A stretch of DNA of 32,000 bases from Trichlorobacter lovleyi SZ (lineage in GTDB: Bacteria > Desulfobacterota > Desulfuromonadia > Geobacterales > Pseudopelobacteraceae), in NCBI RefSeq assembly GCF_000020385.1, contig NC_010814.1, forward strand, positions 720,001 to 752,000, written 5' to 3'. Below are positions 12,204 to 30,348 of the stretch, piece by piece. The notes below the pieces were generated by a model. That model did not search any database. It saw only the letters and a program-made list of their open reading frames with translations, and was not told where the DNA came from. Every line of letters begins with the position of its first letter. Positions within the stretch are counted from its first letter, which is position 1. A program made the position numbers and the translations under genes.

Positions 12204-12212
12204 GTTTTGCTC

Positions 12213-14687: not shown

Positions 14688-14759
14688 CGTAGCACTCCTT
14701 GCAATTGACTGCGGCGCAACTTGATTGCGCTGCAGGGGAATTAGACTAATTGCAGCTTG

Positions 14760-16868: not shown

Positions 16869-16905
16869 ATAGGTTGTCCTTTCTCAAACCGGAGCCGGGT
16901 GCATA

Positions 16906-18084
16906 TCAGGCAAACAGGCGTCCCTTCAGTGCCATGATACGCCGGTAGGACTGATCAATCCGTTGTTCGGATATCCTGCCGCTGTTCACCAGATCAACCA
17001 CATGATTAATGGTGGTGGGGGTGATCTCGGGATCATACTCCAGGTTGTTGGAAACCAGGATAATATCCACCCCGGCCAGGATACTTTTTTCGACAATGGT
17101 CTTGTAATCAAAGAACTGGGTCAGCCCCTGCATCTGCAGGTCATCGGTTACCACCACCCCGTTAAACCCCAACTGTTCACGCAGTATGCCGGTGATGAAC
17201 GGTTGTGAGAGGGTTGCGGGCAGATCAGGATCAATATGCCGGTTAAAGACATGGGCGGTCATCACCATCCTGGCCTTGTCTGCGTTGATCAGATTCCGGT
17301 ACGGCTCAAGTTCAACAGCCGACCAGGTATCGGTCACATCCACAAACCCCAGATGGGAGTCGGCGGTGGCGCTGCCGTGGCCGGGGAAATGTTTGAAACA
17401 GGTGGCGACCCGGTTTGCGTCGTGGGTCTCCACAAAGATCCGGGCATGGTTGGTGACAATGGACGGATCTGCGGAAAAACTGCGCTCCAGTGCGCCGATG
17501 GCCGGGCTTTGGGGGTTGATGTTCAGGTCAACCACCGGTGCAAAGTTCATGTTCAACCCGTTTGTTGCCAGAGTGGCACCGATACTGTCGGCATACAGCC
17601 GGGTAACCGCCGGGTTATTGAGGGTGCCGAGCTGCTGGGCCGAGACCGTGGGGGGAAAGCCGTAGCTCTCCTTCAGTCGCACGATTTTCCCCCCCTCCTG
17701 ATCAACGGCAATGAAGAGCGGGGTGGCGGAAAGTGTGCGCAGCTGGGCCGTCAGCCCTTGCAACTGCTCCGGCGAAACGATGTTGCGCCCGTAGGTCTTA
17801 AGCTTTGCATCCCGGTCAAAGAGGATGGTTCCGCCGATACGGTAGTCGCGGATGTCCCGGACAATGTAGTTGCTGTCATCCAGGGTCAGACCGCGGAAGC
17901 CCACCATCAGCATCTGGGCTATCTTCTGTTCCAATGGAACATCCCCTGATGAACTGCCGCAGCCGGCCATCAGGGACGGGAAGGCGGCCACCGTACCGGC
18001 CAGGGCGGCACCTTTCAGAAAGGTGCGGCGGCTGCAGGGCGGCAGCGGTGTGCTGCCTGATGATGACTGGTCGGACTGTTCCAT
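16906..18084 (-). CDS. Exported GH3 (NagZ-like) paralog, Tat signal plus lipobox, 392 aa
   Basis: The signal region is SRRTFLKGAALAGTVAAFPSLMAGC. It is a clear paralog of 14760-15947 (FAPVVDLNINPQSPAIGALERSFSADP, KHFPGHGSATADSHLG). Confidence 0.8.
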   Translation of the reverse strand: MEQSDQSSSGSTPLPPCSRRTFLKGAALAGTVAAFPSLMAGCGSSSGDVPLEQKIAQMLMVGFRGLTLDDSNYIVRDIRDYRIGGTILFDRDAKLKTYGRNIVSPEQLQGLTAQLRTLSATPLFIAVDQEGGKIVRLKESYGFPPTVSAQQLGTLNNPAVTRLYADSIGATLATNGLNMNFAPVVDLNINPQSPAIGALERSFSADPSIVTNHARIFVETHDANRVATCFKHFPGHGSATADSHLGFVDVTDTWSAVELEPYRNLINADKARMVMTAHVFNRHIDPDLPATLSQPFITGILREQLGFNGVVVTDDLQMQGLTQFFDYKTIVEKSILAGVDIILVSNNLEYDPEITPTTINHVVDLVNSGRISEQRIDQSYRRIMALKGRLFA

Positions 18085-18119: not shown

Positions 18120-18500
18120 TTAGAAGAAACCCGCCGGGGTACTTGAGCCCACGGTGACACCGCCCTGTTTGTCCACGGTAACAACGTAGTCTTTCAGCAG
18201 CTTGGGAACTGGCTCCTGATACTCCTTCAATACTGCCTTGCTGGGATCGGTACCGTCGGTGGTGTTAACCACCTTGATCTGGTTGACCGCTTTTACCGGT
18301 GATCCCAGCCCCGGCTTGGAGCTGTTGGGGTTGATGATCTCCGGACTGTTTTTGCTGCCGTCGCTGAATTTGACGCCGACGACGAGTACGAAATTTGAGT
18401 TGTTGATGACCTTGACCATACCGGCTTCGGCGCTGCCCAGACTGCACAGTGCGGTTGTCAGCAGGGTGGCGAATGCGGTGATGAGGGTTGTCTTTTTCAT
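18120..18500 (-). CDS. Small exported protein, 126 aa
   Basis: RBS AAGGAG. The signal peptide is MKKTTLITAFATLLTTALCSLGSAEA. The mature protein starts GMVKVINNS, a VKVxN motif shared with 7003, 23401 and 24410. Confidence 0.7.
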   Translation of the reverse strand: MKKTTLITAFATLLTTALCSLGSAEAGMVKVINNSNFVLVVGVKFSDGSKNSPEIINPNSSKPGLGSPVKAVNQIKVVNTTDGTDPSKAVLKEYQEPVPKLLKDYVVTVDKQGGVTVGSSTPAGFF

Positions 18501-18695
18501 GGTGATCTCCTTGGTTTAAGTAGGGACGTTCCCAAATTGAATGGGTAACATAGAAGGCAATACCGGTCGCTCGATTGTCATTTTGCCATTACCTGATTCC
18601 CCCTGAATACGACCTCGCAGGCCTTGGGGCCGGTTATACCTGTTATGTGCAACGAAGTGGCAGGCTCCCTCCATCCTGTTATTATTACCTTGTTC

Positions 18696-18712
18696 AGCAA
18701 TAGCTGTGCCAA
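18696..18712 (-). promoter_or_regulatory. Sigma-54 promoter (-24/-12)
   Basis: The minus strand reads TTGGCACAGCTATTGCT, a full match to TGGCAC-N5-TTGCT. The -24 G is at 18709 and the -12 C at 18697. The predicted TSS is near 18685, 185 nt before the ATG at 18500. Confidence 0.7.
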
Positions 18713-18756
18713 TGGCTAACATGCTGAATTAATGGCCTTGTAACTCTGCGGCAGCT

Positions 18757-18791
18757 GCCAACTTATGCCTGGTTCTGCCAACATTGTTGGC
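18757..18791 (-). promoter_or_regulatory. Bipartite upstream activating sequence (dyad plus third half-site)
   Basis: The minus strand reads GCCAACAATGTTGGC-N14-GTTGGC. The dyad centre at 18784 lies 75 nt upstream of the -24 G. Confidence 0.6.
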
Positions 18792-18881
18792 GGTTTGACG
18801 GCTCTGCATTGTGATACGGAAACAGACGGAACTCCGCTTCATTTTTTGTCACCCGGCGTCCCTTGAATACGGTTTTTGTTG

Positions 18882-19322
18882 TCATTTCACATGGAGCTTT
18901 TCGAAAACAATCTTGCAGGCCTGTTCCTTGGTTACGCCAGGGTCCAGTGCTACCTGTCCGGTCCTGTCGCCGCTTGCAGCACTCCCTTCCAAACAAGAGC
19001 CCATGTAACACTCATAACTATTGCCGCTTGTATGATAGCAAGCGTAGCATATGGATCTGTAATGGTGATTATAACCCCGCCTTGACGTATCCTGATACAT
19101 CAGCTCGAAAGATTCCCATGTGCCCCAGCGCCAGAACTCGATGACAGAAGAGAATAGCAGCTTTGAAAAAGTACATTTCCATGGGCTTGCAACTGTGAAG
19201 GCTTCCACTTTTTTATACTCTTCTTCAATGTAGGTGCCTGACCAGCTCGAAGGCGCCGAGGCTGTCAGCGCAAGAATTACCGCTGCGAGTATCATGAAAC
19301 CTTTAAAGAAGTAGCGATGCAT
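18882..19322 (-). CDS. Small exported Cys-rich protein, 146 aa (family A)
   Basis: RBS GGGGAGG and a signal peptide are present. It shares FWRWGTWESF and the C-terminal ACKIVFEKL with 28301-28684 (FWNWGKWQSF, ACEIIFKAA). Confidence 0.7.
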   Translation of the reverse strand: MHRYFFKGFMILAAVILALTASAPSSWSGTYIEEEYKKVEAFTVASPWKCTFSKLLFSSVIEFWRWGTWESFELMYQDTSRRGYNHHYRSICYACYHTSGNSYECYMGSCLEGSAASGDRTGQVALDPGVTKEQACKIVFEKLHVK

Positions 19323-19547
19323 TTTGTCCTCCCCTTTGTGTTTAAGCGGTTTTCTGTCCAGCTTGAGCTGTTACAGCGACGGGAATCCGCCACCGGCTTG
19401 CCGGATAATTTCAGCTGATTACTTCTGCACTAGAAATCTTCTGCAAGCCGTTACTGGCCGGGTAAATTCATTTCTTTTGCAAAGACACTGCATGCCTCGC
19501 TCTGCGAGATCCCCGGTTTCCAGAAAACTGTTGTGGCATGCCATGAC

Positions 19548-20354
19548 TTACCGGCTTACCCGTATCCAGCCGCCATGTCCGTACATGGCAGTTCCGGCTG
19601 CCATGGCCTTAACGACCAATGCCGCGTCAACCCAGTATGGTTCGTAGTACTCCCGGTCAACATCAAGCACCAGCACGCGGCCTTTTCCGGCATCATAGGC
19701 GGCTATGGGGGAGATGTGCGGGTACGGCCCACCTCCGGCACCGGTCAGGGTATCCTGGGTGAAGTGAATCAGAATCATGTCATCAGCGGAAGATTCGTTG
19801 GCTGCGAGGGCCTTACGCCAAAGGTCGCGAGTGGGCTGGTTATCGGAAGTAACCTGAACCTTTTCGATTCTGGGGGACGCTATCCCGTTCTGCCGAAGCG
19901 CTTCGGCCAGCACCAGAGCCAACTGATCAAGGGTCAGCCCCACCTGGCCGTTTACACCCCCCTTTTGTACCCGCTGCGCCCATTGGGCTATCTTGACTGT
20001 ATTCAGCAGCATGGCAGACGAAGCGTTCCGATCACTGTCGGCAAGGTTGCGATTAGCACGGGTCAGTGCGTTAACCACCGCCGCTACGGTTGCCACGGAG
20101 CAGTCATAGGCATTCAGTTGCGGCACGTAATAGGGAGATAAGGCCCAGTAGTCGGGAGCCGGATGGGCAGGATTCTGAAAATAGGTGTGATCCCGTGAAA
20201 GCGGCACTGTTGTGGAAGCATATTTAGGGCCGGGGTCTCCTGCAACGCAGATTGCCGAGATAAAGAAGGCAATCAGCGCTGCAGATCCACTGCGCAGAAA
20301 CAGTCTGAACATTGCTATTTGGGATCCATGAAGCGACTTGTGCGCTGCTTGCAT
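19548..20354 (-). CDS. Exported phytochelatin-synthase-like (papain-fold, PF05023-like) protein, 268 aa (alternative start at 20312)
   Basis: The catalytic-Cys block QLNAYDCSVATVAAVVNAL and the His/Asp block PHISPIAAYDAGKGRVLVLDVDREYYEPYWV match cyanobacterial and plant PCS N-domains. A signal peptide is present. ATG 20354 has a GAAGAGG RBS. ATG 20312 lies 2 nt after the upstream gene's stop. Confidence 0.8.
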   Translation of the reverse strand: MQAAHKSLHGSQIAMFRLFLRSGSAALIAFFISAICVAGDPGPKYASTTVPLSRDHTYFQNPAHPAPDYWALSPYYVPQLNAYDCSVATVAAVVNALTRANRNLADSDRNASSAMLLNTVKIAQWAQRVQKGGVNGQVGLTLDQLALVLAEALRQNGIASPRIEKVQVTSDNQPTRDLWRKALAANESSADDMILIHFTQDTLTGAGGGPYPHISPIAAYDAGKGRVLVLDVDREYYEPYWVDAALVVKAMAAGTAMYGHGGWIRVSR

Positions 20355-20713
20355 GATGCCTCTTCGCCGCGGCAGCGCAGGATTTTATTTCTGTCATCCT
20401 TTGCGGCCTGCAGACATGAAGCAAGGTCTGTCTCACACTTCTCGCGGGCCGCTTTCCACAACTCCGACCGCAATATGTTGCGGTTGACATCAGGGCATTT
20501 CAGGTTGCAATCGCCAGGTGGCTTAATCCAGATGGGGGTGAAGCAGGCATCAAACACCTTGCCGCCGGTCTCGTTCATTACGCATCTGGTTACACATGCC
20601 TTGCATTCTTCAGTGGCAGGTTTGTACTCTGTTGCCCAAAGGGGCGCTGCGGCAACTACCGCCAGGAATGTGGCTGTTACAACAAGCTTGTTCAGTGAAT
20701 AGCGATTACTCAT
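20315..20713 (-). CDS. Exported Cys-rich protein, 132 aa (11 Cys)
   Basis: It has a perfect RBS AAGGAGG and the signal peptide MSNRYSLNKLVVTATFLAVVAAAPLWA. It overlaps or abuts the PCS-like gene. Confidence 0.7.
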   Translation of the reverse strand: MSNRYSLNKLVVTATFLAVVAAAPLWATEYKPATEECKACVTRCVMNETGGKVFDACFTPIWIKPPGDCNLKCPDVNRNILRSELWKAAREKCETDLASCLQAAKDDRNKILRCRGEEASCKQRTSRFMDPK

Positions 20714-20790
20714 GATTTCCTCCTTTATTTGTCAGGGGGGTATGCTTCATGGGGGATAATCAGGGATATACATATTTGCAGAAAAACGGC

Positions 20791-21240
20791 TCATTTTACG
20801 GGGCGTACAGGCAATACATAGTTAAATTTATTCACCGTCTCTCTGTCGCTGTTGCCGCTCATGCTGGAGCTATAACAGAGAGTTACCGGTTGCCCCAAGC
20901 CGGGCCCCCACATCTGTACCAAGCAGGTGGATGACCAGTAGTTACCCTGCTGAATATTCGCGAGACCTGAAAGACTCCGCAACTGCCTCAACTCGCTTTC
21001 CGTGGGAAGCCGTCAGTCTCCGGCTTTCGAACTGTCGTTCAGACCGCACTGGCCGCTTGCAAGGTTCTTGGCTCTTGCATCAGCGTCAACCCAGTTCATC
21101 TTTCCCAGACAACCGGCATCCTTCAACACGATAAGATTGTTTAAGATTAGTGTTCCGTTGTCGCCGCACCATGCTGCGTCGTTTGCCGCGCCAATTAGCA
21201 GTGCTGCAAGCAGTAATGATCCGATAATGGTTGTTTTCAT
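20791..21240 (-). pseudogene. DUF1566 (Lcl C-terminal domain) exported protein interrupted by an in-frame TGA at 21013-21015
   Basis: The single frame reads ...GQCGLNDSSKAGD-TGA-RLPTESELRQL...NYWSST...VLPVRPVK. The stop occupies the conserved Trp of the WRLPT motif. RBS GAGAGGAGA and a signal peptide are present. Confidence 0.7.
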
Positions 21241-21259
21241 GGTGTGTCTCCTCTCGTGG

Positions 21260-21607
21260 TTATTGCCAGGTGCCAGAGCATGGCGGCGCGGTGCAGAGCA
21301 GGTTGCAGAACCTGTTCAGATCGGTCATGGGAAAGTCAAAGGGGATGACCGCTGAGCCATAGTTGTCCCTGCACTGGTACTTGCCGTCGTACTTCAGGCA
21401 TGAGTATGATTTGAATTGGCAGCCCACCAGATGGCCTTTTTCAATCATGCCGTTCACAACCTTGGTGATTGCATTGGGGTGGATGGTGCAGCGTTTAGTG
21501 AAGTAATCCGGGTTACTGGTGCAGATAAACGTCTGGGCAAAGGAGTTGCCGGCCAGTGCCAGTACTGCAGCGGTGAGCAGAACAGCTGTCAGGTAGGTAT
21601 TTTTCAT
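21260..21607 (-). CDS. Small exported Cys-rich protein, 115 aa
   Basis: The start is chosen at ATG 21607 (AAGGA RBS). The signal peptide is MKNTYLTAVLLTAAVLALAGNSFA. The mature part has 10 Cys. A 19-nt gap separates it from the downstream DUF1566 gene. Confidence 0.65.
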   Translation of the reverse strand: MKNTYLTAVLLTAAVLALAGNSFAQTFICTSNPDYFTKRCTIHPNAITKVVNGMIEKGHLVGCQFKSYSCLKYDGKYQCRDNYGSAVIPFDFPMTDLNRFCNLLCTAPPCSGTWQ

Positions 21608-21736
21608 GCTGTTTTTCCTTTCCAGTCTGATGGATAACGCCAATTTTCCGAAAACGTAAAGGTCACGTTGCCATGCAGAAAAGACAGAGGTCGTCAGTTG
21701 CCGCTACCTGCGTCCAGCTGCCAGTTGTTACACTCG

Positions 21737-22171
21737 TTACTTGTTACGGACAGGCCAGATATAGCCGTCACCGTTGCCTTTCTGGTAGTCTGTCAGATAG
21801 CCGCTGGGGAAAACCACAACATAGGTATACTTTTCCCCCATACTGAGTGACGTCCAGTACATCCCTGATATAATCCGGCTGAAACCACTGGTGTCTACGG
21901 CCCTGCTTGCCAGTTCTCTGGGGGTTGGAAGCCGCCACTGACCGGCAGTAGACTTGTCACTCAGTCCGCACATACCGGACTGCAGGCCGGCAACCTTGGT
22001 TTCAGCAGTCCACCACCCACTCTAGCCCAGACAGTTGACGTTTTTAAGCCAGACAATGCCGTGGGCGTCGTCAGCAATGGTGCCATTTTTGTTGTCCTTG
22101 TTTGCCGCCTGGGCGAAACCGGCCAAAAGAAGACAGATTACCGCTGTTATCACAAAAGAGAACGTCTTCAT
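21737..22171 (-). pseudogene. DUF1566 exported protein interrupted by an in-frame TAG at 22022-22024
   Basis: I translated it codon by codon: MKTFSFVITAVICLLLAGFAQA...IVWLKNVNCLG-TAG-SGWWTAETKVAGLQSGMCGLSDKSTAGQWRLPTPREL...YWTS...IWPVRNK. The stop aligns with Lys of the paralog (GCLGKMNW). RBS AAGGAG. Confidence 0.7.
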
Positions 22172-22228
22172 GGTGAGTTACTCCTTTTACCTGCTATTTA
22201 ATCACCTCATACAATGCAGTAAGGATAA

Positions 22229-22287
22229 AGGGGCAGGTCGCAACTGCCGACATTTTAAAAGTTTGTATGGAGTTGAGACCTGCCCCT
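22229..22287 (-). terminator. Long imperfect hairpin downstream of the CVNH gene (possible terminator)
   Basis: There is an 11-bp perfect inverted repeat, AGGGGCAGGTC (22229-22239) and GACCTGCCCCT (22277-22287). Five more inner pairs follow (CAACT/AGTTG). On the minus-strand transcript it is followed by UUUAUCCUU. Confidence 0.35.
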
Positions 22288-22332
22288 CATGCACAAAAAA
22301 AATAAGTGTTCTAATTTCCTCGCCAGTTATCC

Positions 22333-22809
22333 CTACTGGTCAAACAGCAGCACTCCCTTATTGTTGCTAAGACCGGTATTTAGATCGAGTGCTGCAGGGA
22401 TGTCCAAAGACAAAAGCCCCCCGGTTTTGCACTTTGCATGTAAGGTCACGCTACCAGTCATCGCAACCTCATAACCTGATTTTACCTCAAGATGGAGGTT
22501 GCTGCAGGTGGTACTAAAATTTGTCCCTTTAAATTTTAGCGCTCCCGCTAGATTTGAGATGCCCTGATTAAGATCGATTGCGGTTGGTCGTCCGATACGG
22601 CAATTCATTCCGAGAAAATCACAGATACAGGGGGATTCTATGCCCGGGGTACATTTCATTGAGGTCATGCACACAGCGCTAAGGTACTTTCCTTGTAGTG
22701 ATATGTTTCTGCAGGTTTCGCTGAAATTCTGTGCCTTTGACTGACCGGTGATTGTCGCCATGAGGAGTGCTGCTACAAGGAAACTTCTAATGTACTGCCG
22801 TGTATTCAT
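22333..22809 (-). CDS. Exported CVNH (cyanovirin-N homology) lectin-like protein, 158 aa
   Basis: It has two pseudo-repeats. The first is NFSETCRNISLQGKYLSAVC...AIDLNQGISNLAGALKF. The second is NFSTTCSNLHLEV...LHAKCKT...ALDLNTGLSNNKGVLLF. These mirror cyanovirin-N (FSQTCYNSAIQGSVLTSTC...SIDLNSVIENVDGSLKW / NFIETCRNTQL...INLDDHIANIDGTLKY). A signal peptide is present. Confidence 0.75.
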   Translation of the reverse strand: MNTRQYIRSFLVAALLMATITGQSKAQNFSETCRNISLQGKYLSAVCMTSMKCTPGIESPCICDFLGMNCRIGRPTAIDLNQGISNLAGALKFKGTNFSTTCSNLHLEVKSGYEVAMTGSVTLHAKCKTGGLLSLDIPAALDLNTGLSNNKGVLLFDQ

Positions 22810-22868
22810 CGGGATCTTCCCCCTGGAATTGTGGTGTTAAGCTGAATTAAGCGTTGAACTTATTCCGG

Positions 22869-23312
22869 CTAATTAGGGCAGAAACCGTATTTGACGCTCT
22901 CTAGGACAGGATCAGGTGGTATTGAAGGTTTGGGGCAGACCCTGACACTGGCACTGTATTTACATTCAACAAAATTAAGGCCTTGTACATAATCAGTGCC
23001 GGCGCAGGTGTGGCCTGCCAAATAGATTTTATTGTTGTTTTTATCAACCCTCCACCCCTCGATTGTCATGAGCGGCGTATTGTAGGGGGCTGTCCAGGTG
23101 TAGATCTGTCCTCGCTGGAGGACCACTGTATTTGTTGTCCCGCCGGCCTGCATGGTGATCGTGTAGTGATCAAACGGCAGGTCACTCGGCAACTGTACCT
23201 TCCATTGATAGGTGTTGGGAAGCGGGAGCTGAAATGCCTGGGCCCGATTTGGCGCAAGTATGGTCAGGCACCAGAAACAGAAAAACAGGGTAATGACACT
23301 GGCTGATTTCAT
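22869..23312 (-). CDS. Small exported protein, 147 aa
   Basis: The start is chosen at ATG 23312 (AGGAGA RBS). The signal peptide is MKSASVITLFFCFWCLTILAPNRAQA. The longer ORF-track version lacks an RBS and overlaps the upstream gene. Confidence 0.65.
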   Translation of the reverse strand: MKSASVITLFFCFWCLTILAPNRAQAFQLPLPNTYQWKVQLPSDLPFDHYTITMQAGGTTNTVVLQRGQIYTWTAPYNTPLMTIEGWRVDKNNNKIYLAGHTCAGTDYVQGLNFVECKYSASVRVCPKPSIPPDPVLESVKYGFCPN

Positions 23313-23400
23313 GGTTGTCTCCTTTGGGCAGACAGGTGGACGTTTCCCTCTTTCTGTAAGTGGAAGGGACCTGACTAGATAGCATGCGGGGAGATTAATG

Positions 23401-23769
23401 CTAATCCACCTTGTCCAGTCTTGGATTGCCTTGGTTGTCCTTCCAAATATGCCATTGTGAACTTTTACAGGAAAAAAAGCAGTTTTGAGCATTGCTTGAA
23501 TCTCTTCCGTCAGCACAGATGACCAGGGTGTTAAACCCTTTAGCCGGGAATTTATTGCGATCTAAACATACCACATTCAACCCTACCGGGCATTTTAGTC
23601 CAAACTCGAAAGTGTACAGTGCGCCGTTGTTAGAAGCAGGAAAAACATGGGACTTTTGCTTGTTAAATACTCCATATAAGACGGTAACTCCACATTCGTA
23701 GTTAGTAAGATTAGTGACTTTAACCCTATGGTTAATCGCATCTGCCGGTACAGGTGATAGCAACGCCAT
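23401..23769 (-). CDS. Small Cys-rich protein (family C); the annotated ATG lies inside an apparent signal peptide, and the true start is possibly non-canonical near 23817
   Basis: The open frame upstream of ATG 23769 reads VITKCCTSTIFLACLLC-M-ALLSPVPADA, a signal-peptide-like stretch, with no ATG/GTG/TTG in frame back to the TAG at 23875-23877. Paralog motifs are YTFEFGLKCPVGLNVVC and CFFSCKSSQWHIWKD. Confidence 0.5.
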   Translation of the reverse strand: MALLSPVPADAINHRVKVTNLTNYECGVTVLYGVFNKQKSHVFPASNNGALYTFEFGLKCPVGLNVVCLDRNKFPAKGFNTLVICADGRDSSNAQNCFFSCKSSQWHIWKDNQGNPRLDKVD

Positions 23770-23889
23770 ACACAGCAGACACGCAAGGAATATTGTTGAT
23801 GTGCAACATTTTGTAATTACTTGGCTATTTATGATTTGATGGTAACCCCCTTCTTGGAAAGAGCGTGATCGGTTCTATGTATTGTTGTT

Positions 23890-23924
23890 GCCAATAGCCA
23901 TCCTGATGCACCAACTCTGTTGGT
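23890..23924 (-). promoter_or_regulatory. Bipartite UAS-like element without a recognisable -24/-12 promoter
   Basis: The minus strand reads ACCAACAGAGTTGGT-N14-ATTGGC, the same architecture as the elements at 18757, 24934 and 28785. The position expected for TGGCAC-N5-TTGC reads GGGGTTACCATCAAAT. Confidence 0.4.
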
Positions 23925-24065
23925 AGTCTAATCCGATTTAAGCGCAATTATTGGACCCAGCATTGCTGCCTGACGAGGTTACAATAAGGAGACTGTCACC
24001 TTATGGCCTCCCATTTGTTTCTCCATGTTTGAAATGAGTCCTTCTGTACTGTTTTCAATCTGCCG

Positions 24066-24338
24066 CTATTTCAACGTGCCGTTCCAGCAAAACCAGCCAC
24101 TCTTTGAATCGTACGCCTTGCCGCTGGCGTTCAACTGCGCCTGAAGGGCCGACGTCAGAAGATAGTACTGAATATAGTTGGACTGTACGGTATCGACTTT
24201 CAGGAAACTGCCTCCTATACCGCCGCTCCCGCAGTACTTGGAATTTCCACTTCCAACGCACAGACAGGTTGTTGCGCTGGCCGGTACGCCAGCCAGCAGA
24301 GCCGCGAACATAAGTGATCCGATGATTGTTTTCTTCAT
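24066..24338 (-). CDS. Small exported 4-Cys protein, 90 aa (family B)
   Basis: The start is ATG 24338 (AGGAGA RBS). The signal peptide is MKKTIIGSLMFAALLAGVPASA. The 68-aa mature part is 49/68 identical to that of 30070-30348 by hand alignment. Confidence 0.7.
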   Translation of the reverse strand: MKKTIIGSLMFAALLAGVPASATTCLCVGSGNSKYCGSGGIGGSFLKVDTVQSNYIQYYLLTSALQAQLNASGKAYDSKSGWFCWNGTLK

Positions 24339-24380
24339 GACATGTCTCCTGTTGTAGTAGTTGTTGCCCACCCCATCAAC

Positions 24381-24397
24381 TGCAGATGGCATGCCGA
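24381..24397 (-). promoter_or_regulatory. Sigma-54 promoter (-24/-12) for the family B gene
   Basis: The minus strand reads TCGGCATGCCATCTGCA, with GG-N10-GC spacing exact. It is very similar to the 28726 promoter (TTGGCATGCAATCTGCT). The predicted leader is about 32 nt. Confidence 0.55.
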
Positions 24398-24409
24398 TAA
24401 CTGCGAAAA

Positions 24410-24832
24410 TCAATACATGCTCCATACCCAGGTCATGGGAGGATTGTAGGGAGGTTTATCGGTCTTGGTATTTGGATCTGTTGGCTTGACTTCAACACGA
24501 TGGTTCCAGCACTGCGCGCCGAGATAGCCGGACTCCAGTGCTTGATAATAATCAGGTGCGCCCCCCCAATAATTTCTGGCAACATAGATGTTCACGCGTG
24601 TCGGGCAGTAGTCAAAAATGTAAGAGTCCAGCTTGCAGGTTCCTCCGCCGATATAGTCCCCATAATAATAACCACTGCATTTCAGCGTTTCCCCAAGCCA
24701 TGTTTGCTGGTACACCTCGTACCTCAACTGGTGGCCGGTGCTGTTGACGATTTTTACCTCCCACGCAGCTGCCTCAACCACGCACAACAGCAGCAGACAA
24801 AGCGCCAGCAAACATACCTTACGTCTGTTCAT
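24410..24832 (-). CDS. Small exported Cys-containing protein, 140 aa
   Basis: ATG 24832 lies 9 nt after GGGAG. The signal peptide is MNRRKVCLLALCLLLLCVVEAAA. The mature protein starts WEVKIVNST. DYCPTRVNIYV and AQCWNHRVEVKP resemble family C motifs. Confidence 0.65.
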   Translation of the reverse strand: MNRRKVCLLALCLLLLCVVEAAAWEVKIVNSTGHQLRYEVYQQTWLGETLKCSGYYYGDYIGGGTCKLDSYIFDYCPTRVNIYVARNYWGGAPDYYQALESGYLGAQCWNHRVEVKPTDPNTKTDKPPYNPPMTWVWSMY

Positions 24833-24873
24833 ATCAGCCACCTCCCGGTATGCAGTTGATCTGTACTGTCTAA

Positions 24874-24890
24874 TACAGTATGTGTGCCAA
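24874..24890 (-). promoter_or_regulatory. Sigma-54-type promoter with variant -12 element
   Basis: The minus strand reads TTGGCACACATACTGTA. The -24 TGGCAC is perfect and the -12 reads CTGTA (GT instead of GC). It lies exactly 74 nt downstream of the dyad centre at 24961. The predicted leader is about 31 nt. Confidence 0.55.
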
Positions 24891-24933
24891 AGACGTATTT
24901 GCGTGATGTCAGTAGGTTAAGCAAATGCAAGCT

Positions 24934-24968
24934 GCCAACTTTCTGTTGCAACCGCCAACACTGGTGGC
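24934..24968 (-). promoter_or_regulatory. Bipartite upstream activating sequence
   Basis: The minus strand reads GCCACCAGTGTTGGC-N14-GTTGGC-N44-TGGCAC. It sits between the DUF819 stop (24981) and the promoter at 24874. Confidence 0.6.
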
Positions 24969-24980
24969 GACGTCAGTCCT

Positions 24981-26144
24981 TCAGAACAACCTGCAGAGCT
25001 GGGCGCAGATGATCCCCAGGTAGGTGCCGAAGATATTGCCCAGAATGGCCAGCAGCAGCCCCACCGAGGCCAGGCCGGGCTGGTAGACCTCTGCCACCAC
25101 CGGGGCAGATGCCACGCCACCCACATTGGCCTGGCTGGCAGCAGCCACCAGAAAGAACGGGGCCTTCAACAGGCGGGCCGCCACCAGCAGGAACAGGGCA
25201 TGCACCGCCATGATCAACAGCCCGGCGCCGATCAAGATCAGACCGGAGCCGATGCTGGCCACCGAGGCCTTGGCCCCGATGGCGGTCAGCACAAAGTAGA
25301 GCAGCCATGAGCCGGCAGTGGAGGCGCCGTGCTGTTCCAGTCTGCGGGCCGGGGTGCAGGAGAGCGCCAGCCCCAGCAGCGAGACCAGCACGATGGTCCA
25401 GGTGTAGCCGGAAACCACATCCTTGATCACCGGCAGCCGGCTGCCCAGCCAGTGGGACAGACCGCTGCCCGCAGCTGCGGCAGGCAGGATCAGCAGAAAA
25501 CCGGACGGGCTGAAGCGTTGCTGTAGCGTCTGCCCGGCTGCTGCAAGCCGGTTACCCAGCTCATCGATAATGCGGCGGTCAGCCCGGTTCCAGCGGTCAA
25601 AGGCCGGCTGCCAGGCTACCCCGGCGATCAGGGCCGCCATCCAGAGGTAGGGTACCACCGTATCCACGATCACCATCGGCGCAAAGACCTGATCCGGTAC
25701 GGCCAGCGCCTCCTTGACGGCGATCATGTTGGCGCTACCGCCGGTCCAGGAGGCGGACAGGGCGCCGAAGCCGGACCAGAACCGTTCACCGACCAGCGGT
25801 TTGAACAGTCCGAAGACCAGGGTCGCCCCCGCGATAATCCCCGCTGCGCCGCTGAAGAACATGGCCAGTGCCGTCGGCCCCAACCGCAGGATCGCCTTGA
25901 GATCCACTGCCAGCAGTAACAGCAGCAGGCTGGCGGGCAGAAGCCAGGTGGTGATCAGGCCGTAGACCGGGCTTCTGGCATCAAGCAGGCCAAAGGTGCT
26001 GGCCAGCATCGGCAGAAAGTAGATCCAGAAGACCGGCGGCAGCAGGTTGAACCAGGCCTTGGTCCGCTGATGGCGCGCAAGTCCCAGGATCAGCAGCTCA
26101 ATGGTCAGCAGGATCATGACTATCAACAGCGGGTGACTGACCAT
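24981..26144 (-). CDS. Polytopic membrane protein, DUF819-like, 387 aa
   Basis: It has about 11-12 hydrophobic segments and a SWTGGSANMIAVKEAL block recalled from the DUF819/YjcL family. It starts 8 nt after the upstream small gene. Confidence 0.6.
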   Translation of the reverse strand: MVSHPLLIVMILLTIELLILGLARHQRTKAWFNLLPPVFWIYFLPMLASTFGLLDARSPVYGLITTWLLPASLLLLLLAVDLKAILRLGPTALAMFFSGAAGIIAGATLVFGLFKPLVGERFWSGFGALSASWTGGSANMIAVKEALAVPDQVFAPMVIVDTVVPYLWMAALIAGVAWQPAFDRWNRADRRIIDELGNRLAAAGQTLQQRFSPSGFLLILPAAAAGSGLSHWLGSRLPVIKDVVSGYTWTIVLVSLLGLALSCTPARRLEQHGASTAGSWLLYFVLTAIGAKASVASIGSGLILIGAGLLIMAVHALFLLVAARLLKAPFFLVAAASQANVGGVASAPVVAEVYQPGLASVGLLLAILGNIFGTYLGIICAQLCRLF

Positions 26145-26152
26145 GGCAGTGA

Positions 26153-26557
26153 TTATTGGATGGTAACGGTCACGGTGCTTGGGCCGGTGCTGTTGCTTGA
26201 GGTCTGCTGGACCTGCAGGGTGTTGCCGGAGCGGCTCAATAATTGCCAGTAGGCCTTAACCTCCACCGTGGTGCCGGTATGGCTGTCGGTAAACTCTCTG
26301 CGCAGCGCGCCGTCCGGTTGCACCTCCCAGCGCTTGCAGCTGACAAAAGCGGGGTAGTTGCTGCAGGTCAGGCTGCCGTTGCTGTTGAAGGTCATGCTGC
26401 CGGTGGGATAGCCGGAACTGACCATGATCTTGCCTGAAACCAGGGCATTGGTGAATTGGGGGCCGGGAGGGCTGAAGAGGTTTTCTGCCGCTGCGATACC
26501 GCTGGTTGCAACGGCACAACTGAGGGCCACGAGGGCGATACGAAGTTGTCTTTTCAT
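26153..26557 (-). CDS. Small exported protein, 134 aa
   Basis: The signal peptide is MKRQLRIALVALSCAVATSGIAAA. RBS AGGCAGGAA. The mature part is beta-rich and Ser/Thr-rich with 2 Cys. Confidence 0.65.
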   Translation of the reverse strand: MKRQLRIALVALSCAVATSGIAAAENLFSPPGPQFTNALVSGKIMVSSGYPTGSMTFNSNGSLTCSNYPAFVSCKRWEVQPDGALRREFTDSHTGTTVEVKAYWQLLSRSGNTLQVQQTSSNSTGPSTVTVTIQ

Positions 26558-26666
26558 AGGGTGTTTCCTGCCTTTCCATGTAGAGGTTTGGTGCTGCTCA
26601 AATCGTCTGTTCTGCTCATTCAGTAAGCGGTCTGTTGTTGTCTTTCAAGTGACGTATCCTTGATCA

Positions 26667-26681
26667 GCCAACTCTGTTGGC
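26667..26681. promoter_or_regulatory. Isolated perfect dyad GCCAAC-TCT-GTTGGC
   Basis: It has the same dyad as the UAS elements but no third half-site and no -24/-12 match at the expected distance. It lies 6 nt past the stop of 26688-27053. Confidence 0.3.
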
Positions 26682-26687
26682 AGTTTG

Positions 26688-27053
26688 TCATTGCAGCTTC
26701 ACCGACCCATCCGGCTCTATAATCAGGGCATAATTAAAACCGGTCAGGTTAAAACAGCCCAGCCCGAGCCCTGTTTTTTCTTGAGGCGACATCCTGAGAA
26801 TGCCATTTACGTAGATCTCATAGATACAGGGATCTTTCAGGTTATAGTTGATGCTGGAGTTTGCGTTGACATGCACCACTTCCGGCCTGTTCAGGATGGT
26901 GCTGTTGGGATTAATGGTTATAAAACGGACAGAGACGTTATTCCTGCCCTTGTTGTTCAGGTTGATGTTGCTCCCGGCCCAGGCGGTCTGGCCCCCTGAC
27001 GCCAGAAAGAGTGTTACGGCTAGCAGTAGGTTGGTGAAGGTTTTTGGTGACAT
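26688..27053 (-). CDS. Small exported protein, 121 aa
   Basis: The start is ATG 27053 (AGGAGA RBS). The signal peptide is MSPKTFTNLLLAVTLFLASGGQTAWA. Confidence 0.65.
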   Translation of the reverse strand: MSPKTFTNLLLAVTLFLASGGQTAWAGSNINLNNKGRNNVSVRFITINPNSTILNRPEVVHVNANSSINYNLKDPCIYEIYVNGILRMSPQEKTGLGLGCFNLTGFNYALIIEPDGSVKLQ

Positions 27054-27172
27054 ATCGTGTTTTCTCCTGTTTTCCGGTATTCCCCTGCAGGCCATACCTG
27101 TTTTGTCTGTCTAAAACGATTTAAAATATTTTTTTGATTTTTTATCCGTCCGAACCAGCACTGATTGCGGTA

Positions 27173-28135
27173 TTATCGTTCATACCGGCGGGCAGCCTCT
27201 TTGACCGTCTGCAGCGCCTGCTCTTTGGGGACCACCAGTTCTCCGACTTCAGGCTGGTGGCCGGAGCCCCATTGGGTCAGCACAACATAGCTGAGGGCGT
27301 TGCCGGGTAAGGCCACCGCCATACCGAAGAAGCCGTCAGGGGCGCGGTATTCCACCAAGCGCTCCTGATATCCGGCCACCATGGCGCGAATCTGTTTCTC
27401 CAGGATGCCCGGCAGGTCCGCATCCGGCGGCAGCGCAGGCAGGCCGGCAACCGTTGCCAGGTCTTGCCGCGTGCCCATCAGTATCTGCGGCTGTTGTAGC
27501 GGATCAAGCCAGGCCAGGAGTTTGATCAGCTCGGTTTCATCAAACGCCACGCAACCGCTGGTGGTGTAGCCTGCCTCCAGCCAGGCATGGACAAAGATTC
27601 CGCTGCCGTATCCTTTGACAACCGGCTTACGGTTGTAGCCGGTTATCAGGCCGTGGCGGTAGCGGTTGTCCGCCAGCTTCATCACCTCAAAAGAGGTTGC
27701 ACTGGTCTGGCCGCGTTTTACCCAGGTGTTGTAGTCGGGGGAAAGGACATCATCCACCCACAGGTCATTCTCGGTTGCCTGTTGGTACGGCATGCTGCTG
27801 GTGATGGAAGCGGCATACCCAAAGGCCGATTCCAGCGCAAACAGGCCGGTTGGTGCCCGGCCATCACCTTCGCGCTTGTCACCGGCAGGTGCGAAGCCGT
27901 TGCGGCCGGTAACTCCCGCCAGGGGACCGGTGCGCAGCTCCCAGCCAAGAACCGTGCGTTCAAAGGCATAGATTTTCACCATTGAACTGTCGCGCGACTC
28001 TGCCAGTGCAACCAGCAACTGATTGCCGGTGATAACCGTGCCGTTCAGTGACGACTGGCTGTCAGACGGTTGTCCGGCGCAGCCGGAGATCATCAGGAGG
28101 CCGATCAAAAAAAAGTGGGTGATGATACCTTTCAT
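27173..28135 (-). CDS. L,D-transpeptidase (YkuD-fold) family lipoprotein with extra C-terminal domain, 320 aa
   Basis: The start is ATG 28135, giving MKGIITHFFLIGLLMISGC (lipobox). The catalytic block is GSGIFVHAWLEAGYTTSGCVAF (His...Ser-x-Gly-Cys). Confidence 0.75.
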   Translation of the reverse strand: MKGIITHFFLIGLLMISGCAGQPSDSQSSLNGTVITGNQLLVALAESRDSSMVKIYAFERTVLGWELRTGPLAGVTGRNGFAPAGDKREGDGRAPTGLFALESAFGYAASITSSMPYQQATENDLWVDDVLSPDYNTWVKRGQTSATSFEVMKLADNRYRHGLITGYNRKPVVKGYGSGIFVHAWLEAGYTTSGCVAFDETELIKLLAWLDPLQQPQILMGTRQDLATVAGLPALPPDADLPGILEKQIRAMVAGYQERLVEYRAPDGFFGMAVALPGNALSYVVLTQWGSGHQPEVGELVVPKEQALQTVKEAARRYER

Positions 28136-28300
28136 CGGTCTGACTTTCTCTGCGTAATCAGGATCACAACCGATAATGACCGTGAGGCCGGGCAGGATCA
28201 TCCCCTGCGTCAAACACTGCTGTATGAACTGTCGTATTCCTGAGATCATGGCTCTTTCTCTCGATAAAACTCCCGGTCACTTCCGTTCCTGCTATTCATT

Positions 28301-28684
28301 TCATCGTTTAGCCGCTTTGAATATTATTTCACACGCAGCACTCTTGCTCGTTCTAGGCTTTATAGTCGGAAGAGGCAACATGTCCAGCTTTAGAAAGAGG
28401 GCTGTATTTATTTGATTATCGGGGATTGTGCAGCCGAATTCGGTGTTGTCTGGTGATATAGCAGAACAGGTATACGTAAGAGCCTTCTCCGGCGACTGGT
28501 TTTTATAAAGCTTGGCAGTGAAGCTTTGCCATTTGCCCCAGTTCCAAAAATGACGCCAAGAACTAAGCTCTGTAACGTTAAGATCACAGGATATTTCTCC
28601 GTTAGACCAGTCGGCAGCCTGCGTGGCAGGGGCTGCTGCAAAGAGCGACACTATCAAAAGTGCGGTAATAGACAGTTTTTTCAT
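28301..28684 (-). CDS. Small exported protein, 127 aa (family A)
   Basis: The start is ATG 28684, 5 nt after GGGGG. The signal peptide is MKKLSITALLIVSLFAAAPATQA. FWNWGKWQSF and ACEIIFKAA are shared with 18882-19322. Confidence 0.7.
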   Translation of the reverse strand: MKKLSITALLIVSLFAAAPATQAADWSNGEISCDLNVTELSSWRHFWNWGKWQSFTAKLYKNQSPEKALTYTCSAISPDNTEFGCTIPDNQINTALFLKLDMLPLPTIKPRTSKSAACEIIFKAAKR

Positions 28685-28725
28685 GGCAGCCCCCTTTTTT
28701 GAAACTGACAAGCTACTTTTGATTC

Positions 28726-28742
28726 AGCAGATTGCATGCCAA
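28726..28742 (-). promoter_or_regulatory. Sigma-54 promoter (-24/-12)
   Basis: The minus strand reads TTGGCATGCAATCTGCT. The -24 G is at 28739 and the -12 C at 28727. The predicted TSS is near 28715, giving a 31-nt leader. Confidence 0.7.
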
Positions 28743-28784
28743 AATATAATGTTGTGATTTTAGTATGTTAGGTAATGAGTGTTT

Positions 28785-28820
28785 GCCAATACGACAACTG
28801 TTGCCGCCAACTCTGGTGGC
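28785..28820 (-). promoter_or_regulatory. Bipartite upstream activating sequence abutting the EBP gene
   Basis: The minus strand reads GCCACCAGAGTTGGC-N15-ATTGGC-N43-TGGCAT. The dyad (28806-28820) ends 1 nt from the EBP stop codon (28822-28824). The dyad centre lies 74 nt from the -24 G. Confidence 0.6.
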
Positions 28821-28821
28821 G

Positions 28822-30048
28822 CTACTCCATGCCCAGCCGCTTCAGCTTCTTGCGCAGCCCCTCGCGGCTCATTCCCAGCCGTTCTGCTGCCTGGGTCTTG
28901 TTGCCTTTGGCCTCTTTCAGCGCCTGCTCGATCAGCTGTTTCTCTGAATCCTTCAGCAGTGATTTTCCCCCGGCTGCTGGTAGAGTGGTCTGCTGCTGCA
29001 GCGGATCAGAAAGGTCGGTCATGGTAATGGTGTCGCCGTAGGCCAGTGCCACAGCCCGCTCAATTTCGTTATCCAGTTCACGCACGTTGCCGGGCCAGGT
29101 ATAGCCGCGCAGCCGTTCCAGCGCCTCTTTGGCAATCCGCATCGGCGGCCTGCCGCAACTGCGGCCCCACTTCTCCAGAAATTGGCGTGCAATCAGGTCA
29201 ATGTCGCCTTTACGTTCCCGCAGGGGCGGAATCCGCAGGGTAACGCCGTTCAGGCGGTAGTAGAGATCCTCCCGGAAGCTGCCTTTGGCAATCTCTTTGG
29301 TCAAATCGCGGTTGGTAGCGGCAATGATCCTCAGATCAACCGGGATGGCGGTCCGGCTGCCGACCCGTTCCAGGGTCCGCTCTTCCAGCACCCGCAAAAG
29401 TTTGGCCTGCAGTTGCAACGGCATCTCCCCCACCTCGTCCAGAAACAGGGTGCCGCCTTGCGCCTGCTGGATCTTGCCGATGCGGGCCTCGACCCCGGTG
29501 GCCACCCCCTTTTCAATGCCGAACATTTCGCTTTCAAAGATGGTCTCCGGGATGGCGGAACAGTTGACTGCCACAAACGGCTTGGCGCTGCGGGGGCTGT
29601 TGAAGTGGATCGCCTTGGCGAACAGTTCCTTGCCGGTGCCGGTCTCGCCGGTGATGATCACCGACAGGCGGGAATCGGCTATCCGTTCTGCCTTGCCGAT
29701 CAGCTCCCTGATCTGGGGGCTGGTGCCGAGGATGGAGGAAAAGGGAAAGGAACGGCGCAGGTTCTTTTTGAGGCTGCTGTTCTCGCGGGCCAGCTGTTCC
29801 CGGGCTGTGCGCAGTTGGAGTTCGGTTGCCCGAAGCTCTTCGATGATCTGCTCCAGCCGGTATTCCCGTGCCTCGACCTTGACCGCCATCATCCCGAACG
29901 ACTCGGCAAAGCGGGCGATCAGGGGGGGGTACTGGCCGCTTTTGGTCAGTTCGAAAATGTCGTTGTATTTACCGTAACGCCCCATGGAGAGGTCTTCGGC
30001 CACGGCGATCAGGCGATCAAGCAGCTGGTTGAGTGGAGTGTCGTGCAT
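28822..30048 (-). CDS. Sigma-54-dependent Fis-family transcriptional activator (bEBP) with a short non-receiver N-terminus and a variant L1 loop, 408 aa
   Basis: The AAA+ core has Walker A GETGTGKE, GGTLFLDEVGEMP and RVGS...IAATNRDL. The C-terminal Fis HTH is KTQAAERLGMSREGLRKKLKRLGM. The GAFTGA position reads GVATGV (29491-29508). The first 100 aa or so are coiled-coil-like with no REC/PAS/GAF pattern. Confidence 0.9.
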   Translation of the reverse strand: MHDTPLNQLLDRLIAVAEDLSMGRYGKYNDIFELTKSGQYPPLIARFAESFGMMAVKVEAREYRLEQIIEELRATELQLRTAREQLARENSSLKKNLRRSFPFSSILGTSPQIRELIGKAERIADSRLSVIITGETGTGKELFAKAIHFNSPRSAKPFVAVNCSAIPETIFESEMFGIEKGVATGVEARIGKIQQAQGGTLFLDEVGEMPLQLQAKLLRVLEERTLERVGSRTAIPVDLRIIAATNRDLTKEIAKGSFREDLYYRLNGVTLRIPPLRERKGDIDLIARQFLEKWGRSCGRPPMRIAKEALERLRGYTWPGNVRELDNEIERAVALAYGDTITMTDLSDPLQQQTTLPAAGGKSLLKDSEKQLIEQALKEAKGNKTQAAERLGMSREGLRKKLKRLGME

Positions 30049-30069
30049 GGTGGCTCCTTGTGTTGTGGC

Positions 30070-30348
30070 TTACTTTAAGGTGCCGTTCCAGCAAAACCAG
30101 CCTGATTGGCCATCATAGGCCTTACCGGCACTGGCAAGCTCGCTTCGCAAGGCAATGGTTAGCAGGTAATAGTTAAGGTGGTTTTGAGAAACAGTATCAA
30201 CCTTGAGGAAAGAGCCGCCTATTGCCCCGTTTCCACAGCTTTTGGAGCTTCCGTAGCCGACGCACAGGCAGGTTGTGGCAGCGGCAGGCAGAACTGCAGA
30301 TACGGCAATCAGTACGGCTACAAAGATGATGCATGCTGTCATTTTCAT
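30070..30348 (-). CDS. Small exported 4-Cys protein, 92 aa (family B)
   Basis: RBS AAAGGGG and a signal peptide are present. The mature part is TTCLCVGYGSSKSCGNGAIGGSFLKVDTV...SGWFCWNGTLK. It ends 21 nt upstream of the EBP ATG. Confidence 0.7.
   Translation of the reverse strand: MKMTACIIFVAVLIAVSAVLPAAATTCLCVGYGSSKSCGNGAIGGSFLKVDTVSQNHLNYYLLTIALRSELASAGKAYDGQSGWFCWNGTLK

Follow-up and report, generated by a model that had tools for sequence, protein, structure and literature searches.

What brings together 15 small genes, nearly all of them with predicted signal peptides, in a single island of a bacterial genome? In Trichlorobacter lovleyi SZ they occupy the minus strand between 18.1 and 30.3 kb of a 32,000-nucleotide stretch (NC_010814.1, positions 720,001 to 752,000; hereafter the window, numbered from its first letter), where four larger genes are interleaved with them. 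An initial annotation described the island as a dense set of small exported paralogs under sigma-54 control, resembling an effector, lectin or envelope-remodeling arsenal, and could match it to no named system; we likewise found no published description of the regulon or of the promoter module reported below. We consider it fairly likely that the island forms the local section of a sigma-54 regulon of secreted binding proteins that is specific to the Trichlorobacter lineage and served by one atypical activator. This proposal draws on promoter modules that are conserved and specific, that go with genes for small signal-peptide proteins and that lie next to the activator gene in SZ and several relatives, and on the purifying selection, recent exchange and pseudogene formation seen among the small genes.

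A composite promoter module recurs in the island

The module spans ~100 nt and consists of the palindrome GCCAMCANWGTTGGC, a GTTGGCAG half-site, an integration host factor (IHF)-like site and a sigma-54-type -24/-12 element. Complete copies precede p17, p12 and p01 (modules 1, 2 and 3; nhmmer E 6e-19, 1e-21 and 2e-18), and remnants precede p10 and p14 (coordinates of all features in Table 1). In the three complete modules the offsets are the same within 1 nt, with the half-site 16-17 nt and the -24/-12 element ~65 nt past the palindrome, and the element at 18696-18711 is a perfect match to TGGCAC-N5-TTGCW. Module 1 starts directly past the activator stop codon; p17 is the first gene beyond it and the YkuD gene the next. 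Ahead of p10, the nhmmer match covers model positions 3-58 only (E 1e-6). The pattern CCAMCARWGTTGG, which was derived from these very sites, occurs five times in the window against 0.41 occurrences expected by chance, each time on the minus strand and in intergenic DNA of the island. Among the eight best GG-N10-GC matches, four fall in intergenic DNA, though such DNA makes up only ~10% of the window, and a weak -24/-12-like site lies ahead of p11 (24381-24396).

A leader of ~195 nt follows module 3. A structured RNA or riboswitch in this leader was considered and rejected, its fold being no better than that of shuffled sequences (z = +1.33); an Rfam scan of the window gave no match. Scans for sigma-70 promoters and terminators gave no excess over chance.

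The module is shared by related genomes and metagenomes, from which 28 distinct copies align nearly gap-free with conserved blocks. Their -24/-12 consensus reads TTGGCAYnnnnnCTGCT, and a conserved TAACAnnnTGATAT block between enhancer and promoter fits the IHF consensus. A profile hidden Markov model built without any SZ-like sequence and run on the 32 kb recovered modules 2, 1 and 3 (E 1e-20, 3e-14 and 1e-9) and the truncated copy ahead of p10 (1e-6), and nothing else. Full modules number 35 in ~0.3 Mb of Trichlorobacter-like or activator-ortholog loci versus 0 in ~1.87 Mb of other loci, and all 35 share the strand of the activator.

Where the downstream open reading frame (ORF) could be called, it is nearly always a gene of 75-162 codons with a Shine-Dalgarno (SD) sequence and a signal peptide, usually starting 117-140 nt from the palindrome. 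These genes belong to the Lcl_C/DUF1566, p11/p19, p12, p17 and p01 families, to a secreted pentapeptide-repeat family and to several orphans. The module lies directly past the activator stop codon not only in SZ but also on contigs L088, L090 and L013. It likewise directly follows activator genes with 59% identity on the distant contigs L103 (11031-11130) and L155 (10993-11090), where the next gene encodes a methyl-accepting chemotaxis protein of 449 aa (L103, by Pfam) or a similar membrane protein (L155). Since these distant modules precede genes of another kind, the tie of the module to small secreted proteins may be a Trichlorobacter innovation.

Sigma-54 control, which had been proposed for the whole island, thus has support, stronger than that available to the initial annotation, at p17, p12 and p01, together with the decayed copies at p10 and p14. 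This support does not reach the island as a whole, since ten of the 15 small genes lack a module. These ten may be reached by read-through, as they lie on the same strand with gaps of 19-233 nt, or may be under other control.

The activator carries an altered L1 loop

The regulatory gene of the island encodes a protein with Sigma54_activat (PF00158, 8.3e-67), AAA_lid_14 (2.4e-23) and Fis-type HTH_8 (3.9e-15) domains. Its residues 1-105 matched no Pfam family at E <= 0.01 save for a chance coiled-coil match, and no REC, GAF, PAS or V4R domain was detected there. The L1 loop reads GVATGV in place of GAFTGA (~29431-29448, residues ~201-206). Conservation of the loop as G[VI]ATGV extends over 87 related loci, many of them from human-gut metagenomes whose activators are ~47% identical and probably derive from Desulfovibrionaceae, and activators with the altered loop look like a whole clade.

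The same loop is present in DVUA0100 of D. vulgaris, a regulator listed as single-component, for which a regulon reconstruction predicts activation of sigma-54 type III secretion promoters (PMC4641369). The two proteins are alike in their loop (GIATGV occurs among relatives of the Trichlorobacter activator), in that neither is a two-component response regulator, and in being predicted to act at canonical -24/-12 promoters and to control proteins of the cell exterior. They differ in their targets, as the Trichlorobacter proteins carry Sec signals rather than being type III substrates and the window holds no type III genes. At the loci of the ~47% identical gut homologs, which may not be orthologs of DVUA0100, no module was found. 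The co-occurrence of many canonical -24/-12 elements with the Trichlorobacter activator independently favors the view that GVATGV activators work at sigma-54 promoters; this comparative support is relevant to the question of how the L1 loop makes contact with sigma-54. We assign the palindrome to this activator mainly because module and activator gene are conserved together, side by side; from these sequence relationships we infer that the activator binds the palindrome and that transcription from the module depends on sigma-54.

The exported proteins form several unrelated families

All 15 ORF starts listed in the initial annotation are exact in their coordinates, and one of these ORFs, starting at 22171, stops after 49 codons. 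An SD sequence (GGAG, AGGAG or GGGG) and a signal peptide were found in 14 of the 15; the ORF starting at 23769, within p10, lacks an SD and retains just the end of a signal peptide. Signal peptides were called by our own heuristic, which combines a K/R n-region, a hydrophobic core and an AxA-like cleavage site. The several Cys residues noted in most of the proteins are indeed present: the mature part holds an even number, from 2 to 10, in 13 proteins (12 of the island and p00, a related protein encoded outside it), and p01 has none. Together with the signal-type N-termini, the even counts are consistent with disulfide-bonded exported proteins.

The description of these genes as paralogs did not hold, as they fall into several unrelated families and most are not paralogous to each other. 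BLAST detected only the pairs p11/p19 (63% identity) and p02/p17 (24%, E 1e-7); further relationships join p05 with p07, both Lcl_C proteins, and p10 with p12 and perhaps p09 in a family that we call VKVxN. That most of the proteins lack a recognizable family was borne out, since Pfam and NCBIfam searches with all small proteins matched only CVNH (cyanovirin-N homology; p08) and Lcl_C (p05/p07). PDB sequence searches with p02, p04, p06 and two family profiles returned no significant match. Ten protein records looked up in the range ACD94446-ACD94462, around Glov_0720-0738, are all annotated as 'hypothetical' except one 'Cyanovirin-N domain protein'. The locus tags of the small genes are named in no paper that we found, and the islands named in the available parts of the text and supplements of the SZ genome paper do not include the region.

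The shared VKVxN start of several mature N-termini had suggested a common small beta-fold. One of the four motifs quoted, 'YHVKVKNDI', lies outside the island and belongs to p00. For p10, p00 and p12 the suggestion was right, and for p09 and p01 the support is marginal. Proteins p10 and p00 and a third subfamily are clearly homologous (p10/p00 E 1e-29 to 1e-39), and an exhaustive HMMER search gathered 129 cluster representatives at E <= 1e-3 into a family for which Pfam has no model. Members are mostly secreted proteins of 125-150 aa, with a signal peptide, a first strand [VI]K[VI]xN, the motifs 'YTF..G.KCP..L.G', 'C..G' and 'C.SS.W.I', and a C-terminal 'YHF.K[ED]'. The profile aligns p12 over its full length, CP and CW motifs included, at 28 bits; the scores of p09 (14 bits) and p01 (15 bits, N-terminal half only) compare with at most 5 bits for controls that share only a signal peptide. 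On its own, an hhalign comparison of p12 with p10 is weak (15% probability). AlphaFold (AF2) predicts an eight-strand all-beta sandwich for both P0002, an intact homolog of p10 (pLDDT 69.5), and p12 (68.2). Foldseek searches of the two models against the PDB returned generic sandwich neighbors only, among them CDC domain 4, the PepT ectodomain, C2 and LecB (TM <= 0.5, E >= 5e-3). The VKVxN proteins make up a previously uncharacterized family of small secreted proteins with a predicted beta-sandwich fold. In word-indexed searches, the p11/p19 and p12 families seem confined to Trichlorobacter-like sequences.

The proposed lectin character is backed by family membership for three genes: p08 as a CVNH protein, and p05 and p07 as Lcl_C/DUF1566 proteins. 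Protein p08 exceeds the cut-off of Pfam CVNH (PF08881; 43.7 bits against 24.5, E 5e-11) and reaches 56 against a cut-off of 80 with an NCBIfam mannose-binding lectin equivalog (E 4e-15). For Lcl_C (PF07603), the SZ fragment p07b, at 34.5, falls just short of the cut-off of 34.9, and a module-linked homolog on contig L088 reaches 39.3; the WRLPT motif is present. Like known CVNH proteins, p08 passes the CVNH model, and p05 and p07 resemble Lcl_C proteins and share WRLPT with several module-linked Lcl_C genes of relatives; the island versions differ in being short, single-domain and Sec-exported, and sugar binding is suggested by analogy. Because CVNH and Lcl_C, the only precedents, are glycan- or surface-binding domains, the products would make up a set of binding proteins that is inducible and located in the periplasm or outside the cell. 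Family membership and the beta-sandwich predictions together suggest that they are probably binding proteins.

Small genes are selected, exchanged and lost

With dN/dS values of 0.1-0.36, the small genes are under purifying selection. Compared with T. thiogenes and a related metagenome-assembled genome (L008), dS is 0.03-0.17 for p01, p02, the phytochelatin synthase (PCS)-like gene, p08 and p09, and 0.5-0.77 for the neighboring core genes f04, f05, f08 and DUF819. In addition, the block p07-p06-p05-p04 shows 96-99% protein identity to a contig whose activator has 87% DNA identity. Both comparisons indicate that segments have been exchanged recently between species.

Gene order differs from that of SZ in every relative compared, and in one strain, 98% related, the genes from p11 to p04 are missing and other cassettes are present. 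The DUF819 gene has moved into the SZ array: its ancestral site, as kept in T. thiogenes and three other relatives, is flanked by the epimerase gene f05 and the Cache-HAMP-SpoIIE gene f04. In SZ these two are adjacent, with a 107-nt gap (5604-5710), and DUF819 lies inside the array.

In SZ, single G>A substitutions on the coding strand have knocked out three of the 15 small genes, one substitution in each. In p05, TGG has become TGA at 21013-21015, which removes the W of the 'DWRLPT' motif and ends the ORF after 75 codons; in p07, TGG has become TAG at 22022-22024. The intact homologs on L088 have TGG at both positions. Recoding of the stops as selenocysteine or pyrrolysine, considered since 'CLG-TAG' resembled CxxU, was ruled out, as the codons are TAG and TGA where intact homologs have Trp (TGG). 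The start codon of p10 has changed from ATG to ATA at 23830-23832, where the intact homolog P0002 begins MNRQVITK. The ATA is shared by the SZ-like metagenome contig L001 and intact alleles occur in L088, L008 and P0002; p10 is probably a pseudogene. The three changes could have arisen because selection on these cassettes was relaxed in the SZ lineage or acted against them.

The greater AT content ascribed to the island is real for the small genes (50.4% GC), and there is no contiguous low-GC block. The counts first given, 25 G+C in the 60 nt at 23821-23880 and 33 in the 60 nt at 13021-13080, are exact. Overall, GC content is 53.4% in the island, 60.6% in its four larger genes and 58.4% in the left flank. 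The mean of the genome is 54.8% (PMC3403914), so that the deviation of the island is modest.

Marks of a mobile island are missing: the window contains no integrase or transposase (Pfam/NCBIfam) and no tRNA, and tRNA-linked integration was ruled out for this reason. Direct repeats at 9814-11244 and 30407-31825 bracket the whole array together with f10-f13. They correspond to the C-terminal ~480 codons of f09, a 755-aa fusion of substrate-binding protein (SBP) and permease, and to the 515-aa f20; the two are 81% identical, and their last ~138 nt are identical. On a JGI metagenome contig (L002), p19 follows immediately on the end of f09. This junction could reflect recombination, circularization or duplication across the ~138-nt repeat, or could be an assembly chimera.

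A proposed regulon and its alternatives

We propose that the activator, which has an atypical GVATGV loop and no receiver domain, would bind the palindrome GCCAMCANWGTTGGC and the second half-site GTTGGCAG, that the IHF-like site between enhancer and promoter would bend the DNA, and that the activator would then contact sigma-54 RNA polymerase at the -24/-12 element ~65 nt past the palindrome. Each module would drive a short gene or operon whose Sec-exported product, of 70-130 residues, usually contains disulfide bonds. The intact units of SZ would be p17, p12 with p11, and p01 possibly with the GH3 gene, two further modules having decayed. Cassettes would be gained, lost, reshuffled and exchanged between Trichlorobacter species, some of them now decaying in SZ. 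The exported families are unrelated to each other (VKVxN, 'TTCLCVG', p02/p17, Lcl_C/DUF1566 and CVNH), and relatives add pentapeptide repeats.

Several points weigh against this proposal. In the classical view, sigma-54 is contacted by a Phe that GVATGV does not have. The link between activator and sigma-54 is drawn from co-occurrence at these loci and one earlier prediction. Most small genes have no module (ten of 15, as above), and the -12 element of the p12 module reads CTGT rather than TTGC. Conservation of the p01 module carries little weight, as the genomes that share it have flanks ~95% identical. On the protein side, a lectin or binding role is indicated by family name for three genes, two of which are pseudogenes in SZ, and the beta-sandwich models, at pLDDT 68-70, reach medium confidence and lack any significant structural neighbor.

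The arrangement follows classical sigma-54 promoters such as nifH, glnAp2 and pspA, in which an upstream activating sequence for the activator, an IHF site and -24 GG/-12 GC elements succeed each other. Element order and spacing are alike, as are the palindromic activating sequence with a second site, the A/T-rich site of IHF consensus and the TGGCAY-N5-YTGC core; the activator gene also adjoins a target promoter. What appears to set the Trichlorobacter module apart is that it has been copied ahead of many unrelated small secreted-protein genes and is confined to one genus-level lineage. The PEP-CTERM/EpsH system with PrsK/PrsR (TIGR02915) of environmental Proteobacteria offers a comparable pairing of one sigma-54 activator with small secreted proteins that are numerous and variable, and the best NCBIfam matches of the activator include PEP_resp_reg, far below its cut-off. 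Unlike that system, none of the 15 proteins has a sorting tail (a hydrophobic or basic C-terminus), the activator has no receiver domain, and the window has no EpsH or exopolysaccharide locus.

A more far-reaching version of the proposal is possible, and we advance it only tentatively: the ~100-nt module could act as a sigma-54 'plug' before interchangeable genes for small disulfide-bonded exported binding proteins (VKVxN beta-sandwich proteins, lectin-like domains and others), all answering to the single GVATGV activator, with cassettes traded between species and turning over quickly. If so, Trichlorobacter would possess an inducible, diversifying repertoire for surface or glycan recognition, directed at other cells, predators or phages in anaerobic consortia.

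Among the alternatives, the island might instead be an envelope-stress or peptidoglycan-remodeling regulon, which we consider unlikely. The small proteins would then be periplasmic chaperones, inhibitors or adaptors (similar to ZraP, Spy or the Ivy/PliC lysozyme inhibitors), and their partners would be the YkuD lipoprotein, the NagZ-like enzymes of glycoside hydrolase family 3 (GH3) exported by twin-arginine translocation (TAT), the PCS-like peptidase and DUF819. The locus does hold two GH3 beta-N-acetylhexosaminidase-like genes as well as epimerase-like, LppC/LpoA-like and amino-acid ABC transporter genes, the p01 module may read into a GH3 gene across a 35-nt gap, and the YkuD gene follows p17 and its module. 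A precedent also exists in ZraR-ZraP, in which a sigma-54 activator controls a small periplasmic protein. More broadly, sigma-54 has been tied to the cell exterior (PMC3162934). However, none of the enzyme genes has a module of its own, and in relatives enzyme genes and cassettes recombine in other orders and combinations. Pfam and NCBIfam show no similarity of the small proteins to the ZraP, Spy, Ivy or Pli families, and CVNH, Lcl_C and pentapeptide cassettes are ill-suited to a chaperone or inhibitor role. The island resembles ZraSR-ZraP and PspF-PspA in that a sigma-54 activator would switch on genes for small envelope or periplasmic proteins, and differs from them in having no histidine kinase, receiver domain or ZraP/PspA homolog (Pfam) and in its many diverse targets.

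It is decidedly unlikely that the region is an ordinary accessory one, in which unconnected lineage-specific signal-peptide genes have unrelated promoters and the activator serves something else. The many module-less genes and the mostly unrelated families fit such a region, as does the number of sigma-54 consensus matches over the whole window, which at 18 does not exceed the 25.6 expected by chance. Against this, a composite element of ~100 nt recurs at fixed spacing and is recovered by a model free of SZ sequence, and the full modules, all in Trichlorobacter-like or activator loci, regularly have small signal-peptide genes next to them.

Still more doubtful is an orphan immunity island, a horizontally collected set of periplasmic proteins that neutralize type VI, contact-dependent inhibition (CDI) or bacteriocin toxins of competitors. 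Many unrelated small periplasmic families, strain-variable content, a dS far below that of neighboring core genes, which indicates exchange, and the decay of some members would all suit it. Yet the 32 kb contain no toxin, Rhs, VgrG, CdiA or bacteriocin export gene and no integrase (Pfam/NCBIfam), lectin-type domains and a dedicated inducible sigma-54 activator would be atypical, and no known immunity family was matched, a weak negative given the poor coverage of such families in Pfam and NCBIfam. Lastly, it is very improbable that p11 and p19 are Sec-dependent bacteriocin-like peptides or signals, with p19 feeding back on the activator: a gap of 21 nt separates p19 from the activator gene downstream of it, both products are short and contain 4 Cys, and their family often comes next after the module in relatives, but immunity, processing and export genes are missing, the adjacency of p19-like and activator genes is not conserved in relatives, and most cassettes are folded domains of 100-130 aa.

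Under the regulon that we favor, about 20 'hypothetical protein' annotations (Glov_0720-0738) in a well-studied organism of interest for bioremediation become a testable unit with a cis-element, a candidate activator and a predictable output. One promoter module would have spread ahead of secreted-protein genes that are unrelated and pass between species, which fits the proposal that sigma-54 governs the cell exterior (PMC3162934).

Gene inventory and neighboring genes

The PCS-like, YkuD, DUF819 and sigma-54 activator genes reported among the small genes are all confirmed by Pfam, and they are listed with the other features in Table 1.

Table 1. Positions of the small genes, larger genes and promoter modules in the window.
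Feature	Positions	Strand	Description
p00	7003-7443	-	VKVxN member outside the island, no module
p01	18120-18500	-	small exported, zero Cys, two VKVxN-like strands
module 3 (p01)	18694-18792	-	palindrome CCAACAATGTTGG 18778-18790, GTTGGCAG half-site, -24/-12 TGGCACAGCTATTGCT 18696-18711
p02	18882-19322	-	small exported, 6 Cys, distant p17 paralog
PCS-like	19548-20354	-	Phytochelatin PF05023 2e-22, papain-fold, N-terminal hydrophobic anchor or signal
p04	20315-20713	-	small exported, 10 Cys, orphan
p05	20794-21240	-	exported Lcl_C/DUF1566, broken by in-frame TGA
p06	21260-21607	-	small exported, 8 Cys, orphan
p07	21737-22171	-	exported Lcl_C/DUF1566, broken by in-frame TAG
p08	22333-22809	-	exported CVNH lectin-domain protein, 8 Cys
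p09	22869-23312	-	small exported, 4 Cys; C-terminus like 'VC.KP..Y.FC' subgroup
p10	23401-23832	-	VKVxN-family gene, start codon mutated
truncated module (p10)	23868-23923	-	palindrome CCAACAGAGTTGG and TTGGCA half-site, promoter part gone
p11	24066-24338	-	exported, 68-aa mature part, 4 Cys, 'TTCLCVG' family, p19 paralog
p12	24410-24832	-	exported, divergent VKVxN member, predicted 8-strand beta-sandwich
module 2 (p12)	24873-24969	-	palindrome CCACCAGTGTTGG 24955-24967, GTTGGCAG half-site, -24/-12 TGGCACACATACTGTA 24874-24889
DUF819 membrane protein	24981-26144	-	Pfam 3.6e-82, GC 0.65
p14	26153-26557	-	small exported, 2 Cys, orphan; 8 nt upstream of DUF819 gene
orphan palindrome (p14)	26668-26680	-	CCAACAGAGTTGG, no -24/-12 after it; module remnant
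p15	26688-27053	-	small exported, 2 Cys, orphan
YkuD (L,D-transpeptidase-fold)	27173-28135	-	Pfam YkuD 1.9e-7; probable start
p17	28301-28684	-	small exported, 4 Cys, distant p02 paralog, no Pfam/NCBIfam match
module 1 (p17)	28724-28822	-	palindrome CCACCAGAGTTGG 28807-28819, TTGGCA half-site, IHF-like site, -24/-12 TGGCATGCAATCTGCT 28726-28741
activator (Glov_0737-like, 408 aa)	28822-30048	-	sigma-54 enhancer-binding protein
p19	30070-30348	-	exported, 68-aa mature part, 4 Cys, p11 paralog; 21 nt upstream of activator gene

The annotated YkuD ORF extends over 27173-28249 (358 aa), and its longer N-terminus has no signal-peptide character. The protein is probably a lipoprotein that starts at an internal ATG at 28135 (MKGIITHFFLIGLLMISGC), as suggested by the lipobox LLMISGC in the translation. 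The last 40 nt of p04 (20315-20354) also form the beginning of the PCS-like gene as annotated, which could mean either translational coupling or a later start codon of the PCS-like gene. At the other end of the island, p01 sits 35 nt upstream of a GH3 (NagZ-like) gene with a TAT signal, and the two may be co-transcribed.

The flank at 5711-18084 includes two GH3 NagZ-like genes, one with a confirmed TAT signal and the other with a TAT-like RRTFL N-terminus, together with an L-Ala-D/L-Glu-epimerase-like (MR/MLE) enzyme and an 824-aa double Peripla_BP_6/LppC-like protein. SBP-permease fusions, an ABC ATPase, an iron-type alcohol dehydrogenase (Fe-ADH) and an acetolactate decarboxylase are also encoded there, and the flank looks like a locus for the uptake of cell-wall fragments or amino acids. 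On its minus strand, 112 nt upstream of the ABC-transporter gene f09, a good -24/-12-like site (TGGCATGCAAGACGCA, 12187-12202) stands without a palindrome module and is possibly a sigma-54 promoter for another activator.

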